A stretch of DNA of 64,000 nt. It comes from Candidatus Enterousia scatequi. GTDB lineage: Bacteria > Pseudomonadota > Alphaproteobacteria > Rs-D84. Shown here in pieces: positions 3,644-20,785 of this stretch. The notes under the pieces were generated by a model. It saw nothing but the letters and a program-made list of their open reading frames with translations. It did not search any database and was not told the origin of the DNA. Position numbers and translations under genes: made by a program. The stretch is taken from positions 49,152 to 113,151 of the forward strand of contig JAGHVG010000003.1 in the NCBI GenBank assembly GCA_018064405.1, read 5' to 3'. Every line of letters starts with the position of its first letter. The first letter of the stretch is position 1.

Positions 3644-5971
3644 TTGTTTGGTATGAGTAAGTTAAAAGATCAATTTAATTCTATGCGCGAAAACATGCCA
3701 AAGGGCGTGATGTGGTTGCTGTTAATTGCAACATTTATCGTGGTGTTGATATTATTGACGCTAATATTTACACATTCTAACAAGGAAGGCGACAAGGAAC
3801 AATCAACACCTAACGTTGAACAAATTTATTTGAACATTGCCCCTGATGCAATTGATTGGGCTGATACGCCCGTAGATACAAAGAAAACAGAAAAAATAAA
3901 GGTATCTGCGACCGCACCAATCAAAGTATCCAAGGTTAGATTGGTTGATGATATACAAAATCTAACAGTTAAAGAAACCTGTACCTTGATTTCTGTGGCC
4001 CCAGATTTTCCTTGCACTGTAACTGTTGAATACAAACCAATGGCGGAACAGGAAAATAAAACAATACCATTATACATTGAATGGTACGGTGCAAACGAAA
4101 CTATAGATATGGTTAAACAATCTGTGTTAAATATAACAATTGGTGCATTTAAGGAATATGAAGAACCAGTATATATTCCAACGCCTGTTATTGAACCTGA
4201 ACCGGTATTTGAACCTGTTAAACAAGAAATACAAACAGCGGTTGAAGAAATTGCACCCGCATTGCCGGTTGTGTCAGATACCCCAACCGCACCATCAGAG
4301 GCATGTTCAGATTTCGCGCTGCCTGGTTATAATACAAACGGAACACAAATTGGATGGATAAAACCAGAATCTGGGACATATTATTTTCACCCATTTGATG
4401 ACAAAGAATGTAATAATCCAACGGGCATATATAATCCGGATACTGGCATTATAATGGATATTAATAAATCTGGCAAAAAAATCGGAACAGACGCGGAACA
4501 CATTGGATATTCGCCCATAATAAATGGGACAATGCCACAATTAAAATCAACGTCCGACACAACCACGCCTTCAAATTCAGTTCGCATTTATGGGGGAATG
4601 GGCAATTTAAAAGGAACATTTCTTGGTTCTGGGATGAACTTTATCAAGAATGACGTTCAAGCGGAAAAATACTTAGGATCTGGATTGGCGGAATCTGTGA
4701 TATCATCACGCCCGTATGATCGGACATTCATATTACGTCAATTCAAACCAATCCCAGCCACAATCGTATCAGAGGTTCGTGCAGACCCCAGCATATATGG
4801 TTGCGATGGCAGTGGTAATTGTACAGGTGGTGGTATCCCGGTTCGTGCAACAGTAGACAGAAATGTTTATTCCGATAATGGTCGCACAATTATTTTACCA
4901 ACTGGAACATTATTGTTGGGATATCTGAAGGGTGAATTGCCAGGACCATATAAATCAATTGGACGTATGCAAATTAATTGGTATCAATTTATTCGCCCAG
5001 ATGGCGTAGAGTTTAATTTTGCTGGCGGCCAGGATCCATATTCGGCAGATGCCCAGGGCCGTGTTGGTGTTCCGGGTCATGGTAGCACAGATTATGTTGA
5101 ACAGATTGTTATGCCTCTGCTAACGGCAATTGTACCGGCTGCGGTAAACCTGATTGCGCCAATCGCAGATACATTTGTTAATCAAATTGATTTGGATAAT
5201 AATACGGTTGTCCAAAGTGGAACGGTTCGTTCATCCGAATTAGCCAAAAATCAAGTTATAACCGCCTGGAATCAGGTTGCACAGAAATTGTTGGTTGATG
5301 CATTGGACAATACAGTTCCCCCATTTTCAATCGCCGCGGGAACACGTATAACGGTATATTCACCAGTTGATTTAATTGTGACATGCGGTGATGACGAAGG
5401 TAAAAACTGTAAAATTTCTGAATATTCTAATAACAATCGTCGTCCATGGGCATCTGTAAATAATCTGGTTGGGGTTAATTACGCAGATTCATCATGGATT
5501 GGACAGGCCCGATCATTCCAAGTAAGTAATTGTTGTAACACTGATGGCACGGTTATCCAAAATTGGCAGGCAAGCCCAGCATGTAAGGATTATGATTATA
5601 GAACCCTGCTGTTTTCATGCCAGGCAAATCAATACCAAGCAATTAATAACGCGAAACAGGCGGCATTATATGCTAATCAATCTGATCCGAATAATGCAAA
5701 TAGTGTTGCTGCTGCAACGGCAAATGGAACACAGGCGTATAATGAACAAGTATTAGGATTGAAATATAACGCAGATGGTTCTATACAAAATCCATTTAAT
5801 TCATCCACCAATAATACGGCAGCTGCGGCGGCCCCAGTGATAACGTGCGAAGATGGTAATTTACCAGATACGTATGGTTGCTGCGCGGGCGAGGTTTATA
5901 CAGATATGGGGGACCAAGGATTTAATTGTTGTCCTTCGTCAGGGGGCGATTGCTTCCCACCAATAAAATAA
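3644..5971 (+). CDS. virB10: type IV secretion system protein VirB10 with a long Cys-rich C-terminal extension
   Basis: N-terminal TM (VMWLLLIATFIVVLILLTLIF) and a Pro-rich linker (EEPVYIPTPVIEPEPVFEPV). The VirB10 beta-barrel core is recognisable (RATVDRNVYSDNGRTIILPTGTLLLGY...RMQINWYQFIRPDGVEFNF...DAQGRVGVPGH). After it come ~250 aa rich in Cys/Asn/Ala (SNCCNTDG...CCAGEVYTDMGDQGFNCCPSSGGDCF). The annotated start is TTG at 3644; a possible ATG is at 3653. Confidence 0.8.
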   Translation: MFGMSKLKDQFNSMRENMPKGVMWLLLIATFIVVLILLTLIFTHSNKEGDKEQSTPNVEQIYLNIAPDAIDWADTPVDTKKTEKIKVSATAPIKVSKVRLVDDIQNLTVKETCTLISVAPDFPCTVTVEYKPMAEQENKTIPLYIEWYGANETIDMVKQSVLNITIGAFKEYEEPVYIPTPVIEPEPVFEPVKQEIQTAVEEIAPALPVVSDTPTAPSEACSDFALPGYNTNGTQIGWIKPESGTYYFHPFDDKECNNPTGIYNPDTGIIMDINKSGKKIGTDAEHIGYSPIINGTMPQLKSTSDTTTPSNSVRIYGGMGNLKGTFLGSGMNFIKNDVQAEKYLGSGLAESVISSRPYDRTFILRQFKPIPATIVSEVRADPSIYGCDGSGNCTGGGIPVRATVDRNVYSDNGRTIILPTGTLLLGYLKGELPGPYKSIGRMQINWYQFIRPDGVEFNFAGGQDPYSADAQGRVGVPGHGSTDYVEQIVMPLLTAIVPAAVNLIAPIADTFVNQIDLDNNTVVQSGTVRSSELAKNQVITAWNQVAQKLLVDALDNTVPPFSIAAGTRITVYSPVDLIVTCGDDEGKNCKISEYSNNNRRPWASVNNLVGVNYADSSWIGQARSFQVSNCCNTDGTVIQNWQASPACKDYDYRTLLFSCQANQYQAINNAKQAALYANQSDPNNANSVAAATANGTQAYNEQVLGLKYNADGSIQNPFNSSTNNTAAAAAPVITCEDGNLPDTYGCCAGEVYTDMGDQGFNCCPSSGGDCFPPIK

Positions 5972-14876: not shown

Positions 14877-15125
14877 ATGAAAAACGCAAATCACGGTTCA
14901 ATTGACAACGAACAACTGGTCAACATTATTGAAAGAATTGAAAAATTAAATGAAGAAACTGCTGCAATTGCCGCCGACATCAAGGAAATTTATAGCGAGG
15001 CCAAATCTGCAGGATTTGATCCAAAGTATATTCGTCAAATGATACGTTTGCGTAAACTGGACCCGGATGAATTAGATGAAGCAGACGAATTAACCCAAAT
15101 GTATAGAAACGCACTTGGTATATAA
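14877..15125 (+). CDS. gapR: DUF2312/GapR-like nucleoid-associated protein
   Basis: 82 aa reading NEQLVNIIERIEKLNEETAAIAADIKEIYSEAKSAGFDPKYIRQMIRLRK, the GapR signature. Confidence 0.7.
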   Translation: MKNANHGSIDNEQLVNIIERIEKLNEETAAIAADIKEIYSEAKSAGFDPKYIRQMIRLRKLDPDELDEADELTQMYRNALGI

Positions 15126-15439
15126 TGAAAACCTTTATAAAAAACATTGAAGATTTCACCTGCGCCCATTGTGGCGCAGTTGTTCATGGAAACGGATATA
15201 CAAATCATTGTCCAAAATGTTTGTGGTCCCGACATGTTGATAACAACCCTGGCGACAGATTGGCCGAATGTGGCGGCATGATGCACCCTATATCAGCCGA
15301 ACCAACAAGCGATGGTTTTATAATTACACATAAATGCGAAAAATGTGGCAAAACAAAAAAACAACACAGTGCGGCTGATGATGATGCCTCAATTTTAATT
15401 ACACTAACAACAAATCCTGAATTTATATTCGGGAAATAA
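15125..15439 (+). CDS. RNHCP domain zinc-ribbon protein
   Basis: Contains the literal motif YTNHCPKCLWSRHVD plus CEKCGK. The start overlaps the gapR stop (TAATG). Confidence 0.6.
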   Translation: MKTFIKNIEDFTCAHCGAVVHGNGYTNHCPKCLWSRHVDNNPGDRLAECGGMMHPISAEPTSDGFIITHKCEKCGKTKKQHSAADDDASILITLTTNPEFIFGK

Positions 15440-15445
15440 TCGGGC

Positions 15446-17446
15446 TTGACCGCGGTTGGCCTAAATTCCTATAATTTTTATATGCAGAATTTTTGGAAAA
15501 ATCAGAATCAAAATTTCTTTCTGTGGGTGCCGATTGTTATGGCATTTGGCGCCGCCCTATATTTCACATTAAACACAGAACCCGAAATTCAATATCCTGT
15601 TATTGCGACGCTATGTATGGTGATTATTATATTCGCAAAAAATTTAAACAAAATATTACGATTAATCGGAATATTTTTATTTGGGTTTCTGTATGCTGTG
15701 TCTTTTGCACGTCTGATAAGCACACCTATAATACCCTATCCATTGCGGGATATTAATACAGATGCAACCGTTATAAATATTGATTATGGTAGCGATAAAA
15801 ATCGGGCGATTTTGTCGGTTCCACTAAATGGTGGCTTGGCCAATGTTCGTCTGACATTACCAGAAATAACACAACCAATTCAAATTGGCGATAAAATCAA
15901 TATTAATGCGACATTGTTTCCACCAAACAAAATGGATGCACCCGATACATTTGATTATGCACGATGGGCATATTTTAATAATTTAAGCGCAACTGGTTTT
16001 ATCACAGAATATCAAGTCATCAACCACACGAATACAACATCATTTAACAATCTGCGTAATAATATTCACAACGATGCAAAATCAGTATTAACTGACGCAT
16101 TGATACTAGGGTATAAAAACGCATTACCGGAAACACAACACGACACGTGGACAAACGTTGGAATTGCACACATCTGGTCAATCAGCGGTTTTCATATGAC
16201 ATTAATCGGTGGATGGCTGTTCGTATTGTTTTATTCTATATTTCGCATGATTGGATTTATTACGCGCCGGATACCTGCGCGAATTCCTGCGACAATATGT
16301 GCATGGATTGGTTTAATATTTTACGTCGGTATATCTGGGGCCAGTGTTGCAACATTACGCGCATTTTTGATGACGTCACTGATATTCCTGGCGATAATAT
16401 TGGGACGTAATGTGATTAATTTGCGCAATGTATGTTTTGCCTTTTTAATTATATTTCTGATTAATCCGCACTACATAATGCAGGCGGGTTTTCAATTATC
16501 ATTTGCGGCAATTTTCGGTCTGATTTGGTTTTGGAACAGAAACAAAACAAATATATTTGATGAACCAGAACGTAAAAACAAAACACTAAACACAATATAT
16601 AAAATAATTATGACAACTGTTATTGCGACACTGTTCACATTGCCGTTTGTAATGACGCATTTTAATTCTGTTCCTGTATACACTTTGTTGGGAAACTTAA
16701 TATTACTGCCGATATTTTCATGTGTAATTATGCCATTGGTATTGATTGGCACACTATGCGCCGTATTTAACGTTCATATATTCTTAGATATGGCAAATTA
16801 TGTTTATGATTTTGCGCTAAATATTGCCACACACATATCAACGCTGCCCTTTGCAACATTAAACTTGCCACATATTTCAAACATCGCATTTACTATTATT
16901 ATTTTGGGTATGTTTATGATTATTTTTATAGTATCTACCAAGAAAGCAAACTATTTGATTGGTGGAACTTGTATTATGATTGGCATAATATGTATTATTG
17001 CAACCCCAAAGCCAGTGTTTTATATCACGGGTGACCACGAATTGATTGGTATGGTATATAATAACAAACTGGAATTTAATAAGGCACGTGCATCAAATCA
17101 CTATTTCGCGTTTAACACATTTAGAAAATTAAACGGTGAACCTGAATCAGAAATTAACACACGACATAAATGTCCAGATGGTGTTTGTATATATCAATCA
17201 GACAAATTCACGATTGCATATATTCAAAAATTTGTTCCACTAAACAAAAATTTTGGTGCGTTATGTAAAGACGGTTCCATAACCTATATAGCATCCTATT
17301 TTGATATACAATCAAAATTATGCGCAAATAAAATTTTACGTAATGGATTTGTAATCTATAAAAACGGGAAAATAAAATACACGCCAACTAATCGTTGGTG
17401 GCATATTCCGCACGAACAAAAAACAGCCCTGACGCCGGTGCCGTAG
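15446..17446 (+). CDS. comEC: ComEC/Rec2 DNA internalisation channel (competence domain only; no recognisable C-terminal metallo-beta-lactamase HxHxDH motif)
   Basis: Polytopic protein with the competence-domain motif WSISGFHMTLIGGWLFVLF. 666 aa. Confidence 0.75.
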   Translation: MTAVGLNSYNFYMQNFWKNQNQNFFLWVPIVMAFGAALYFTLNTEPEIQYPVIATLCMVIIIFAKNLNKILRLIGIFLFGFLYAVSFARLISTPIIPYPLRDINTDATVINIDYGSDKNRAILSVPLNGGLANVRLTLPEITQPIQIGDKININATLFPPNKMDAPDTFDYARWAYFNNLSATGFITEYQVINHTNTTSFNNLRNNIHNDAKSVLTDALILGYKNALPETQHDTWTNVGIAHIWSISGFHMTLIGGWLFVLFYSIFRMIGFITRRIPARIPATICAWIGLIFYVGISGASVATLRAFLMTSLIFLAIILGRNVINLRNVCFAFLIIFLINPHYIMQAGFQLSFAAIFGLIWFWNRNKTNIFDEPERKNKTLNTIYKIIMTTVIATLFTLPFVMTHFNSVPVYTLLGNLILLPIFSCVIMPLVLIGTLCAVFNVHIFLDMANYVYDFALNIATHISTLPFATLNLPHISNIAFTIIILGMFMIIFIVSTKKANYLIGGTCIMIGIICIIATPKPVFYITGDHELIGMVYNNKLEFNKARASNHYFAFNTFRKLNGEPESEINTRHKCPDGVCIYQSDKFTIAYIQKFVPLNKNFGALCKDGSITYIASYFDIQSKLCANKILRNGFVIYKNGKIKYTPTNRWWHIPHEQKTALTPVP

Positions 17447-18131
17447 GACCCGCAGCGCTGCGATTTTTCGCACCGAATATTGCATTTATATCATATGGTT
17501 TGCCCAAGCCAATTTCTACCAATGTTCCAACCATATTACGCACCTGGTGGTGTAAAAAAGAACGTGCAGAAAATTCAAAAATAATTTCATCACCGTTTTG
17601 TTTTATTTCACATCTGTCCAGCGTCTTGATTGGGGATTTTGCCTGACATTCAGACGACCTGAATGATGTAAAATCATGATTGCCAATTAACTTATTACCC
17701 GCATCCTGCATGGCAGCAACATCTAATTTACGCGGCACCCACCACACACGATTTTTATTTAACACAGGTTGTGCAGCACGATTTAACACAACATATTTAT
17801 AATGACGCGCAACACAAGAAAAACGCGCGTTAAAATCATCAGAAACAATCATACAACCCAACACTGAAACAGGTTTATCATTAAGATAAAAATTTAATGC
17901 ACGCATAACCGTATTTGCATCCGTATCAGATTGCAAATCAAAATGCGCACACATTGCAATTGCATGCACACCGGCATCTGTGCGCCCAGCAGCAATAACA
18001 TCTGGTTTCTCGCCACAAAATGATTTTACGGCATCTTTTATTAAAGATTGGACAGATGGTCCCTGGGTGTTTTCCTGCCACCCTATTAAATTCGTTCCAT
18101 CATATTCAAGAATTACTTTATATCGCGTCAT
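17388..18131 (-). CDS. truA: tRNA pseudouridine(38-40) synthase
   Basis: Catalytic motif GRTDAGVHA; 247 aa. Its 3' end overlaps the comEC 3' end by 59 bp (convergent). Confidence 0.9.
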   Translation of the reverse strand: MTRYKVILEYDGTNLIGWQENTQGPSVQSLIKDAVKSFCGEKPDVIAAGRTDAGVHAIAMCAHFDLQSDTDANTVMRALNFYLNDKPVSVLGCMIVSDDFNARFSCVARHYKYVVLNRAAQPVLNKNRVWWVPRKLDVAAMQDAGNKLIGNHDFTSFRSSECQAKSPIKTLDRCEIKQNGDEIIFEFSARSFLHHQVRNMVGTLVEIGLGKPYDINAIFGAKNRSAAGPTAPASGLFFVRAEYATND

Positions 18132-18134
18132 ATT

Positions 18135-18323
18135 TTATCTGCACTTACGGCATTTAATACATTTTTGCATCTGCGCATCAAAGTTTTTTGACACCCAAGA
18201 AATATATGTAACACAAGTGGCGCACTTATAACTAGGTACCTTGCAGCCCAGACATGGACATTTATTGTTTAGTTCTGAATCAGACACACTACATTTATGA
18301 AAACCACATTTTTTTACCGACAT
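18135..18323 (-). CDS. small cysteine-rich protein (62 aa, 10 Cys), paralog of the upstream ORF
   Basis: Reads MSVKKCGFHKCSVSDSELNNKCPCLGCKVPSYKCATC...CIKCRKCR. An AAAGGA SD lies 9 nt before the ATG. Its stop is 3 nt before the truA start. Confidence 0.5.
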   Translation of the reverse strand: MSVKKCGFHKCSVSDSELNNKCPCLGCKVPSYKCATCVTYISWVSKNFDAQMQKCIKCRKCR

Positions 18324-18338
18324 TCATCATCCTTTCGT

Positions 18339-18551
18339 TTAACGTTTTTTAAAAAAATGACATCTTGAGCAACGCATAAGCAATAAATTTTGCATATATT
18401 CCATATCACGAGCACATTTGGCAATTGAACAATTTGTACAATCTTCGCCCAGGCAACGTATACATTCACAACGCGAATACATCTTTGCAACATCGCCAAC
18501 CGTGGCATTACAAAATTGTGCAACAAAATCACATTTATCCAATTTTACCAT
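18339..18551 (-). CDS. small cysteine-rich protein (70 aa, 10 Cys)
   Basis: Reads MVKLDKCDFVAQFCNATVGDVAKMYSRCECIRCLGEDCTNCSIAKC...RCSRCHFFKKR. The ATG is 4 nt after the fmt stop. The Cys spacing parallels the 62-aa ORF (K-C-x-F...C; C-x-C-L-G...C; C-x-[RK]-C at the C-terminus). The longer 113-aa version would overlap fmt and is rejected. Confidence 0.45.
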   Translation of the reverse strand: MVKLDKCDFVAQFCNATVGDVAKMYSRCECIRCLGEDCTNCSIAKCARDMEYMQNLLLMRCSRCHFFKKR

Positions 18552-18555
18552 TTTG

Positions 18556-19371
18556 TTATTTACCCATAATAATATCTGCGCCACGCAGACCGTTAACAAA
18601 ACTTTCCCAATCCATTGGTTTTTTACCGTCTGGCTGGATACGCAATATTTCAAGTTTATTATCTGATATGCGCGTTTCAAGTATTTTTACCCCAATACTA
18701 TTTATAGTCGTACGCCCACCACCCAATGCACGAACCAAATTATGAATTTGCACAGGTTTAAGTTCCCAATCAATAATGGAATCTGAATTTGAAAATTTAT
18801 GTGTAAATGTTGGGGTTCCCATCTGTGCAATCGGAATATACCGGTCAGGTGCATCAAAATATTCGTTTAACATATCAACCGCCACAACAGAAACCTTATG
18901 CTCAACATCAGCATTTGTGTCGTTTATATCAATTTTTATATTCTTGCGTATTAAAATATCGCCAGCGTCCATCTCTTGGGTCATTTCCATCAGGCACACA
19001 TCCATATTATCGTCACCGTTTAATATCGCACTACGTATCGGTGACGGACCACGATATCGTGGCAAACTGCTGGGGTGAATGTTGATGCACTTTGCACTGG
19101 ATAAAACATTTTCCCCCAATATAACCCCATACGATATAACCACAATATATTCTGCCCCAGGATTAGTAAATTCCTTGATTGATGTATAAACCGGCAGACC
19201 TTTAGATTCCGCCCAAACATGAACCGGTGATTTTGTTAAAATTTGTTTGCGTCCCTGGGGTTTTGGGGCGCGCGTATAAACAGCCAAAATATCATGCTTG
19301 GTTGCCAGCGCATCAAACACAGGAACAACAAAATCGTTTGTACCCATCAATATCAATTTACGTTTTTGCAT
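18556..19371 (-). CDS. fmt: methionyl-tRNA formyltransferase
   Basis: Motifs HPSSLPRYRGPSPI and the C-terminal domain. Overlaps the def stop by 1 nt (classic def-fmt operon). Confidence 0.9.
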   Translation of the reverse strand: MQKRKLILMGTNDFVVPVFDALATKHDILAVYTRAPKPQGRKQILTKSPVHVWAESKGLPVYTSIKEFTNPGAEYIVVISYGVILGENVLSSAKCINIHPSSLPRYRGPSPIRSAILNGDDNMDVCLMEMTQEMDAGDILIRKNIKIDINDTNADVEHKVSVVAVDMLNEYFDAPDRYIPIAQMGTPTFTHKFSNSDSIIDWELKPVQIHNLVRALGGGRTTINSIGVKILETRISDNKLEILRIQPDGKKPMDWESFVNGLRGADIIMGK

Positions 19372-19871
19372 TACTTATGCCTCCGCACTTTGCGCATAAC
19401 CATTTCACGACGGGTGGCAGGTAAATAGTCAATGAATAATATACCATCCAGGTGATCTGTTTCATGTTGAACGATACGCCCTACGACACCAGACATTTCG
19501 GCACGCATCTGTTTGCCATCTATATCCGTCCATTCAACAATAACACTTTCGGGACGTGTCACATTTGCAAACACCGGTAAATTATCCCCACCTAATACAG
19601 ACAGGCACCCTTCTTCCATCGTACAAGTTTTATCACTGTGTGATACAATGACAGGATTTATCATTTTAAAAACCTGCCCAGAATCAGGATCCATCATTAC
19701 AAGAAAGCGTTTCAAAATATTAACTTGTGGGGCCGCCAATCCAACGCCATTTTGCGCATGCATCATTGAAACCATTTCGTCCATTATAGACAACAAATTA
19801 TCATCCACCTGCGAAACGGGTTCACATTTTGATCTTAGCGCTGAATCACCACAAAGTTTCATTTGCAACAT
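19371..19871 (-). CDS. def: peptide deformylase
   Basis: The three metal-binding motifs are present: GVGLAAPQ, EGCLS and HETDHLDG. The start is chosen at MLQMKL (19871); the ORF is open to 19946. Confidence 0.9.
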   Translation of the reverse strand: MLQMKLCGDSALRSKCEPVSQVDDNLLSIMDEMVSMMHAQNGVGLAAPQVNILKRFLVMMDPDSGQVFKMINPVIVSHSDKTCTMEEGCLSVLGGDNLPVFANVTRPESVIVEWTDIDGKQMRAEMSGVVGRIVQHETDHLDGILFIDYLPATRREMVMRKVRRHK

Positions 19872-19915
19872 GCAATATATCCTTTTATAATCCGATTGTA
19901 GCAAAGGAATCTTGA

Positions 19916-20785
19916 ATGACAACTTATATTTTTGTTTTATTAGCAATAATTATCGTACTGTTGGTTGTTATGTTATTGCGCAATCCCAAAGTGGATATTT
20001 CCCCCATTCGCGAAGATAACACCCGGCTGCGTGAAGCGCTGGCAACGCGCTTAGGTGCACTAACACAGAACGCAAACGAATTACGCACAATAAGCGCAGA
20101 CATCGCAAATTTCAAAGATATTTTGATGGGCAACAAACAGGCACGCGGATCATTTGGCGAACGTCAACTGGCTGATTTAGTTGCAGATATTTTACCCCCA
20201 GACGCATATGCCTTTCAGTGTGTGATGAAAACAGGTGTCAGACCCGATTGTATAATTCGCCTGCCCTATCCACCTGGGGATATGATTATTGATTCTAAAT
20301 TTCCATTGGAATCTTATAATCGCATGCGCAGTGACAATTCTGATGGGATAAAAAAGCAGTTTGAACTAGACGTCAGAAAACATATTGATGCAATAGCAGA
20401 AAAATATATTATTACAGGCGAAACTGCAGAATCAGCAATGATGTTTATTGCATCTGAATCAATATTTGAAATACTGCACAGGGAATTTCCTGCACTGGTT
20501 GATTATGCCGCACGACGCAAAGTGTTTATCGTATCCCCGGCAACATTGTGGGCAACACTGAACACTATACGCGCCGTATTATCAGACATTAAAATTAAAC
20601 GTGTCGCAGGAAAAATAAAAAAAGAACTTGATGCACTGCTGACTGATCTTAACCGTTTGTCAGACCGTACGGAAAACCTGCAACGCCATTTTGCACAAAC
20701 ATCAGGCGACATTGAACAGATTCAAACATCTGTATCTAAAATCGCACCCCGCGCCGAAAAAATTCGCGATATGGATTTTGACTAA
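19916..20785 (+). CDS. rmuC: DNA recombination protein RmuC
   Basis: N-terminal TM, coiled coil and the RmuC C-terminal domain. SD AAAGGA precedes the ATG. Confidence 0.85.
   Translation: MTTYIFVLLAIIIVLLVVMLLRNPKVDISPIREDNTRLREALATRLGALTQNANELRTISADIANFKDILMGNKQARGSFGERQLADLVADILPPDAYAFQCVMKTGVRPDCIIRLPYPPGDMIIDSKFPLESYNRMRSDNSDGIKKQFELDVRKHIDAIAEKYIITGETAESAMMFIASESIFEILHREFPALVDYAARRKVFIVSPATLWATLNTIRAVLSDIKIKRVAGKIKKELDALLTDLNRLSDRTENLQRHFAQTSGDIEQIQTSVSKIAPRAEKIRDMDFD

Follow-up and report, generated by a model that had tools for sequence, protein, structure and literature searches.

The two small open reading frames (ORFs) that lie between fmt and truA in Candidatus Enterousia scatequi are genuine genes, and they belong to a protein family without a name. 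We found them in a stretch of 64,000 nucleotides (contig JAGHVG010000003.1, positions 49,152 to 113,151), called here the window, and refer to them as ORF A and ORF B. They are anciently diverged paralogs within a previously unnamed, genus-restricted family of cytoplasmic mini-proteins of 60-130 amino acids (aa), which we designate Fam1. Taken as a whole, we consider it on balance probable that both are real accessory mini-proteins that carry two Zn(Cys)4 sites apiece, are produced from the operon in which they lie and act as binders or modulators. That confidence applies mainly to their being real accessory mini-proteins stabilised by metal, and far less to the role of binder. Fam1 is a new family within a familiar kind, that of the small cysteine-rich metal-binding proteins. 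What is unusual is its genomic behaviour, since it forms a variable array tied to a single junction within a core operon of strongly reduced genomes; it does not so far point to a new mechanism.

The original prediction placed two ORFs of 70 and 62 aa between fmt and truA, and its lengths and coordinates proved exact, as did the spacing that it gave (4 nt after fmt, 15 nt with an AAAGGA Shine-Dalgarno sequence between the two ORFs, and 3 nt before truA) and the count of 10 cysteines in each protein. These cysteines are residues 7, 14, 28, 30, 33, 38, 41, 46, 61 and 64 of ORF A and residues 6, 11, 22, 24, 27, 34, 37, 55, 58 and 61 of ORF B. Among the 123 ATG-initiated ORFs of 50-130 aa in the window the two have the highest cysteine counts, amounting to 14-16% of their residues compared with 1.1% in window ORFs of at least 200 aa. 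Net charge is +4 for ORF A and +9 for ORF B. The parallel cysteine spacing that had been described was approximately right, but the motif C.C..LG..C was not: the core reads C-E-C-I-R-C-L-G-E-D-C in ORF A and C-P-C-L-G-C-x6-C in ORF B, and what they have in common is CxCxxC followed by CxxC. Word-indexed searches with the single sequences returned one near-identical copy for ORF A and nothing for ORF B, and a collection of 15 billion proteins does not contain ORF B in its exact form. The copy of ORF A, an over-extended call of 86 aa, lies on a 1.2-kb Logan contig (SRR25429234) that is 99.1% identical to the window, with one substitution in ORF A and none in ORF B, too few changes for a selection test.

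More distant relatives provided such a test. A scan with TruA of 185,579 species representatives, one genome per species and the genome of the window not among them, identified 49 loci at 69-91% TruA identity, of which the best was L002 at 91% (L numbers denote the loci of relatives). These loci, of about 12 kb each, stem from metagenome-assembled genomes of gut or rumen origin that bear the label Candidatus Enterousia or uncultured Alphaproteobacteria/Rickettsiales; together with the window they make up the 50 genomes compared here. The ratio of nonsynonymous to synonymous substitution rates (dN/dS) in Fam1 ortholog pairs was 0.13-0.57, compared with 0.01-0.23 for fmt and truA in the same pairs; the fmt values of four pairs with L025 or L019, artefacts of a misregistered codon alignment, were ignored. 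The small junction genes had a dN 2-8 times as high as fmt and truA on either side of them. In searches of 9,369 six-frame ORFs with profile hidden Markov models (HMMs) from which the window sequences had been excluded, ORF A matched the model of A-type genes from other genomes (E 3.4e-10) and ORF B that of the non-window, non-A-type Fam1 genes (E 2.4e-6). Purifying selection and conservation in relatives thus show that ORF A and ORF B are not chance ORFs, and conservation, which the original prediction had proposed as a check, bears them out as real genes.

The relationship between ORF A and ORF B is an old one. When the A-type and B-type subfamilies were compared in hhalign with ORF B left out, they aligned with a probability of 95.4% (E 1.9e-8, score 42.1); the best of 60 column shuffles scored 17.2, and Fam2, a second family of the same junction, scored 9.3. 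BLASTP of ORF A against ORF B gave no significant similarity, and their identity is about 17%. Both are closer to genes of other species than to one another: the best relatives of ORF A are the 'CNATVGD' genes of L037, L035, L040, L031, L042, L005, L053 and L054, and those of ORF B the 'VVSEYNNNGxCKCLxC' genes of L048, L016, L034, L039 and L032. Given this low identity and the nearer relatives elsewhere, the two are old paralogs and not a fresh duplication. The suggestion of a duplicated mini-protein is therefore correct as far as homology is concerned, which hhalign supports, but a recent tandem duplication is contradicted by the identity and by the BLASTP result.

Seven cysteines of Fam1 are invariant across 46 aligned members, although identity per alignment column averages only 24%, and alignment A2 adds an eighth invariant one (the alignments behind these counts hold 46-65 sequences). 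The family pattern is C1...(13-35)...C-x-C-x2-C...(4-10)...C-x(2-9)-C...(15-50)...C-x2-C, which ORF A follows with C7, C28/30/33, C38/41 and C61/64 and ORF B with C6, C22/24/27, C34/37 and C55/58. Members carry one to three extra, non-conserved cysteines each, here C14 and C46 of ORF A and C11 and C61 of ORF B. A valine and an asparagine are near-invariant in the 'VxVSEYN' strand. Histidine is not conserved (0-5 per protein). The cysteine count stays at 8-11 across lengths of 60-130 aa, and this constancy fits fixed structural sites rather than a density of cysteine. None of the sequences inspected had an evident signal peptide or membrane segment (no predictor was run). Invariant cysteines in proteins with no evident export signal are most simply metal ligands, and eight such ligands suggest two Cys4 sites. 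Metal binding, as originally proposed, is thus the natural reading, at the level of sequence, of seven to eight invariant cysteines in a cytoplasmic protein.

While fmt and truA flank the slot throughout, its content differs from genome to genome. The Fam1 HMM detects members in 17 of the 50 genomes, both window ORFs included. The fmt-truA junction is open in 31 genomes, with a gap of 170-1020 nt that holds one to four small cysteine-rich ORFs on the same strand. In the other 19 it is closed, the fmt stop overlapping or abutting the truA start (gap 0-14 nt), and these include the two nearest relatives by TruA identity, L002 and L003 (85%). Closed and open junctions are scattered over the TruA tree, a distribution consistent with an old slot for several genes, from which genes were lost many times independently and in which genes also duplicated and diverged. 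Since 19 of the 50 genomes, the two nearest relatives among them, do without such genes, we regard the genes as dispensable accessories; for the same reason the translation-linked role that had been suggested from their neighbours is not borne out. The cassettes at the junction abut or overlap each other. An integron-like cassette array was considered and rejected because there is no room between cassettes for attC-like sites, although no repeat search was run.

Fam1 occurs in this slot and has no known relatives. Across the 64-kb window and the 50 loci (about 12 kb each), its HMM matches nothing outside the fmt-truA gap, and four further members whose contigs were read all lie directly upstream of truA; on two of these contigs rmuC, def and fmt precede the gene, and the other two contigs are cut within fmt. 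A profile search of a 5.8-billion-protein database recovered 25 Fam1 proteins, none of them assigned a Pfam domain or named for a function, 'hypothetical protein' being the sole name given. HMMER, run exhaustively over 1.84 billion cluster representatives, also gave 25, all of them 155 aa or less. With the A-type alignment, a scan of viral contigs found no relative, and a metagenome scan found one locus, of the same type as L035. Pfam at E values up to 1 returned nothing significant for the two window ORFs and 17 further members of alignment A1; DUF1289, YacG and Trm112 were absent from the matches, so that none of the memberships proposed for checking (these three, ferredoxin and rubredoxin) found a Pfam match. 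NCBIfam likewise gave nothing significant, PHROGs nothing below E 0.027, and PADLOC a single stray match (E 0.041) among 46 members. In PDB profile searches at E values up to 10, the best matches were 2luy at E 0.16, which is a tandem zinc finger from yeast, and cytochrome c-552 at E 0.36. Foldseek with the model of ORF B found nothing in the PDB and nothing significant among the BFVD viral models. The earlier remark that the pair matches no nameable family holds across Pfam, NCBIfam, PHROGs, PADLOC and the PDB. Single-slot occurrence together with these negative searches makes Fam1 a genus-level orphan family tied to one chromosomal slot.

The second family of the slot, Fam2, is missing from the window and present in 19 of the 50 genomes, in L010 as a remnant only. 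Its members are 65-90 aa long, with four conserved cysteines (CxxC...C...C), 4-5 cysteines overall and a consistently basic character (net charge +3 to +12); examples are L018 5794-5997, L025 5761-5994, L021 5795-5992, L034 5262-5783 and L039 5288-5779. Fam2 is also under purifying selection (dN/dS 0.05-0.26 in ortholog pairs). Profile comparison shows no relationship with Fam1 (hhalign probability 0.2%); Fam2 has no match in Pfam, and its profile gave weak, non-significant matches to ribosomal protein bL36 (E 0.07-1.2). Fusions of the two families occur in both orders, Fam1-Fam2 in L019 (1006-1359) and L047 (5645-5998), 117 aa in length, and Fam2-Fam1 in P0047 (L054 582-986), 134 aa in length, which hints that the two families work together. 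A toxin-antitoxin pair of Fam2 and Fam1 was rejected, as most genomes hold only one of them. Some further observations concern the slot as such. In comparisons of L018 with L026 and with L022, nucleotide identity falls to 0.78-0.81 over the Fam2 cassette (about 5770-5920) against 0.90-1.00 in the flanks, and the cassette has a dS of 0.83-0.90 against 0.20-0.40 in fmt and truA; this dip may reflect exchange between lineages or a local hotspot of mutation. In the Fam1 pair L035/L042, identity does not dip over the cassette. A few slot ORFs fit neither family HMM, namely L036 5475-5995 ('FCAHGNAFVIPNAYNN...'), L043 5831-5995 ('FYCKIGNVLIAPNVYNG...') and L052 3257-3436 (59 aa, 9 cysteines), and may be degenerate or represent additional subfamilies. 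L030 (CAVGNU010000001.1, 108 kb), a record titled 'Bacteroides fragilis isolate ... cleanbin', carries an Enterousia-type def-fmt-Fam2-truA arrangement with a TruA identity of 73%, and looks taxonomically mislabelled or mis-binned.

We propose that ORF A and ORF B would be made from a def-fmt-A-B-truA mRNA, each from its own ribosome-binding site within the tightly packed operon. Each Fam1 protein would be held together by its eight conserved cysteines, most likely in two tetrahedral Zn(Cys)4 sites. The fixed fmt-truA slot probably held several genes ancestrally, of both Fam1 and Fam2, from which losses in some lineages, duplications and divergence would have led to the zero to four copies seen today. 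We think it most likely that the proteins themselves are small binding modules, stabilised by metal and docking on some macromolecular partner, rather than enzymes or bulk metal stores, and the only partner pointed to is Fam2, through the gene fusions. Such a binding or modulating role is suggested by proteins that are small, non-enzymatic, fast-evolving, dispensable and occasionally fused to Fam2.

Several points weigh against this proposal. A plain HMM comparison of ORF A with the B-type gave no link (E 0.68), and the connection between ORF A and the B-type genes rests on the profile-profile comparison, the shared locus and the shared cysteine pattern. Net charge in Fam1 ranges from -7 to +11, a spread that indicates no uniform nucleic-acid-binding surface. 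AlphaFold2 (AF2) gave a compact model of ORF B, in which residues 3-14 form a predicted beta-hairpin, residues 31-34 a short helix and residues 38-56 a long one, but the quality of this model is moderate (mean predicted local distance difference test score, pLDDT, 74.8), and that of ORF A is poor and unusable (pLDDT 46). Many genomes hold Fam1 and no Fam2, or the reverse, so the two are not obligate partners. Finally, the role of binder or modulator was reached by elimination and not from positive evidence.

Comparison with known small zinc proteins places Fam1 near several of them and within none. The archaeal one-domain zinc-finger micro-proteins of Haloferax volcanii, of the C(P)XCG type, stand alone as ORF A and ORF B do; they are below 70 aa, consist almost entirely of Cys4 metal sites, mostly bind zinc and in many cases belong to no known family, and deletion mutants have regulatory or stress phenotypes (PMC11241148, PMC10716476, PMC6562870). 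However, ORF A and ORF B lack the C(P)XCG motif itself, as no glycine follows the second cysteine in CIRCL, CTNCS and CSRCH of ORF A or in CLGCK, CATCV, CIKCR and CRKCR of ORF B, and Fam1 differs in having eight ligands rather than four and in being bacterial and limited to a single genus and a single locus. Two-zinc modules with eight cysteine ligands in about 60 residues (B-box, FYVE, RING and LIM-like domains, and 2luy, which is Stc1 of S. pombe) offer a closer count of ligands, but they are eukaryotic domains inside larger proteins, the stray matches to them are all sub-threshold (B-box E 0.013, FYVE E 0.077, 2luy E 0.16-0.68), and the alignment with 2luy misses the CxC pair of Fam1. Ribosomal proteins bL36, bL31, bL32, bL33 and uS14 are also small Cys4 proteins linked to translation; PDB profile searches matched Fam1 to no ribosomal protein, and the matches between Fam2 and bL36 are the non-significant ones given above.

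A different use of the cysteines can be imagined, in which Fam1 would be a metallothionein-like buffer or store that holds Zn, Cu or Cd in thiolate clusters, its copy number following metal exposure in the animal gut. We regard this as possible though unlikely. The bacterial metallothioneins BmtA and SmtA are also cytoplasmic proteins of about 55-70 aa with about 15% cysteine and a CxCxxC-type run, and the CxCxxC of Fam1 resembles the CxCxxCxC carried by cyanobacterial SmtA. They bind several metal ions in one thiolate cluster through cysteine and histidine ligands (Zn4 in SmtA), and the 9-10 cysteines of most Fam1 members could form a cluster of the Zn3Cys9 type. The patchy occurrence, the variable copy number with several copies at times and the frequent oversight by gene callers are also shared, one or more bmtA genes being found in 14 of 33 marine cyanobacterial genomes (PMC3323870). 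In addition, the hairpin and helix predicted for ORF B recall the zinc-finger-like core of beta-hairpin plus helix in BmtA-type metallothioneins (PMC3323870). Against this, Fam1 has no match to a bacterial metallothionein in Pfam or among the PDB profile matches. Its cysteine number, fixed at 8-11, is independent of protein length, its non-cysteine residues and spacing are kept as in a structural domain, and it has no conserved histidine ligands. Moreover, its genes lie in a housekeeping operon and not beside a metal sensor, with no efflux gene nearby, and the co-resident Fam2 has just 4-5 cysteines.

Iron rather than zinc could also occupy the sites, as in rubredoxin-like Fe(Cys)4 proteins or [4Fe-4S] carriers serving strictly fermentative anaerobes; we hold such redox mini-proteins to be quite unlikely. 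The eight invariant cysteines are as many as the ligands in a 2x[4Fe-4S] ferredoxin, the CxxC...CxxC half is similar to the knuckles of rubredoxin or of zinc ribbons, and one member had a stray, sub-threshold NCBIfam match to the Fe-S subunit ArrB (E 0.0012). The host, moreover, is anaerobic and has no respiratory chain (PMC12306168). On the other hand, neither window ORF contains CxxCxxCxxxCP, Pfam and NCBIfam gave no match to a ferredoxin, a rubredoxin or a high-potential iron protein, there is no redox enzyme in the neighbourhood, and the 19 genomes with a closed junction manage without these genes.

More speculatively, and with little expectation that it will prove correct, the slot can be pictured as a dedicated, rapidly turning-over array of metal-stabilised Fam1 and Fam2 mini-proteins, at times fused, that tunes or protects the surrounding machinery of tRNAs and translation start (Def, Fmt, TruA, the initiator tRNA or other tRNAs). 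Its members might, for example, be species-specific modulators, or decoys against phages or against organisms on which the host depends. If this were true, the slot would represent a new kind of accessory module inside a core operon.

Precursors of ribosomally synthesized and post-translationally modified peptides (RiPPs), such as SCIFF, ranthipeptide or sactipeptide-like cysteine-rich peptides, are similarly small and rich in cysteine, with tandem variable copies and quick evolution, but we think them very improbable here: the loci read have no gene for a radical-SAM enzyme, a protease or an exporter within several kb, conservation spans the full length with no split into leader and core, and no NCBIfam precursor model was matched. 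Least tenable is that the ORFs are non-functional, being either chance ORFs or cysteine-rich leader-type ORFs that couple or attenuate truA translation, for although the coupling-like spacing, the absence from many relatives and the failure to find ORF B among 15 billion proteins would agree with it, this explanation is largely refuted by selection and conservation, with dN/dS well below 1, cysteine positions and spacing invariant at so low a mean identity, significant leave-out HMM matches and the persistence of the genes in otherwise streamlined genomes of less than 1 Mb (PMC12306168). A cysteine-sensing leader peptide or attenuator was rejected as well, since spacing and non-cysteine residues are conserved and under selection.

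The accessory mini-proteins that we favour would have a bearing beyond the genus. Enterousia belongs to the uncultured order Rs-D84, has genomes mostly below 1 Mb, and is without the TCA (tricarboxylic acid) cycle, a respiratory chain and the standard transporters for sugars, amino acids and peptides (PMC12306168). Candidatus Enterousia is widespread in human and livestock guts, and genes that are retained in genomes of less than 1 Mb usually have a function. Here, one junction of a core translation operon holds a variable set of orphan cysteine-rich mini-proteins, which gene callers often overlook. If Fam1 binds zinc and a partner, it would be a bacterial counterpart of the archaeal zinc-finger micro-proteins, and streamlined genomes would be seen to express accessory genes from inside housekeeping operons. 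If it instead buffers metal, it would constitute a new type of bacterial metallothionein, relevant for livestock supplemented with zinc or copper.

The features of the locus are collected in Table 1. The genes def, fmt, ORF A, ORF B and truA form a single tightly packed operon on the minus strand, and a consensus scan found no convincing promoter or terminator within it.

Table 1. Features of the def-fmt-A-B-truA locus, in window coordinates and in the order of transcription.
Feature	Position	Strand	Description	Basis
Promoter-like site	19895..19922	-	TTGTCA, 16 nt, TG-extended TACAAT; putative function	Consensus scan, 10/12
def	19371..19871	-	Peptide deformylase; first operon gene	Pfam PF01327, E 3e-42
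fmt	18556..19371	-	Methionyl-tRNA formyltransferase, short 271-aa form	Pfam PF00551, E 8e-26; PF02911, E 1e-9
ORF A	18339..18551	-	70 aa, 10 Cys; Fam1 A-type ('CNATVGD')	Leave-out HMM
Spacer	18324..18338	-	15 nt, ACGAAAGGATGATGA; AAAGGA is the Shine-Dalgarno sequence for ORF B	Sequence read
ORF B	18135..18323	-	62 aa, 10 Cys; Fam1 B-type ('VxVSEYN...CxCLxC')	Leave-out HMM
truA	17388..18131	-	tRNA pseudouridine synthase A; last operon gene	Pfam PF01416, E 1e-34
Terminator-like hairpin	17384..17398	-	CCAACGATTAGTTGG plus T-rich tail, at the truA stop; putative function	Consensus scan

The start of def is the ATG at 19871 and not the TTG at 19946, as judged by alignment to the 167-aa Def of relatives, which begins MLQMKLCGD. 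The ORF as mechanically called from the TTG overlaps rmuC (19916-20785, plus strand); with the ATG as start, the divergent control region between rmuC and def is about 45 nt and holds the promoter-like site, which is followed by an AAAGGA Shine-Dalgarno sequence 9 nt ahead of the def ATG. At the other end of fmt, the stop codon TAA (18556-18558) is followed by four nucleotides (CAAA) and then by the ORF A ATG at 18551. The stop codon of ORF A occupies 18339-18341; ORF B runs from its ATG at 18323 to its stop at 18135-18137, after which three nucleotides (AAT) lead to the truA ATG at 18131. Rfam detected four tRNAs only in the window and no RNA element near ORF A or ORF B.

The neighbours of the locus in the window encode GapR-like, RNHCP, ComEC, RmuC and HAD proteins; among these neighbours and on the contigs of relatives that were read, there is no maturase, transporter or metal regulator gene near the locus. 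At 14877-15439 (plus strand), the gene for the GapR-like DNA-binding protein (PF10073) is followed by that for a 104-aa RNHCP-domain protein, the stop of the first overlapping the start of the second. The latter is the only other small cysteine-rich protein near the locus and gave spurious weak matches to Fam1 profiles (E 0.005-0.05), which indicates that cysteine composition inflates such scores. The 3' ends of truA and of comEC (15446-17446, plus strand) overlap convergently by 59 nt (17388-17446), as they also do in the gene calls of L052, L053 and L055, and the terminator-like hairpin falls within this overlap. Finally, the C-terminal tRNA-binding domain of Fmt is matched in part only (PF02911, residues 194-239), and in all 49 relatives the alignment of Fmt reaches the last residues of the 271-aa query, the protein stopping within a few codons of that point whether cassettes follow or not.

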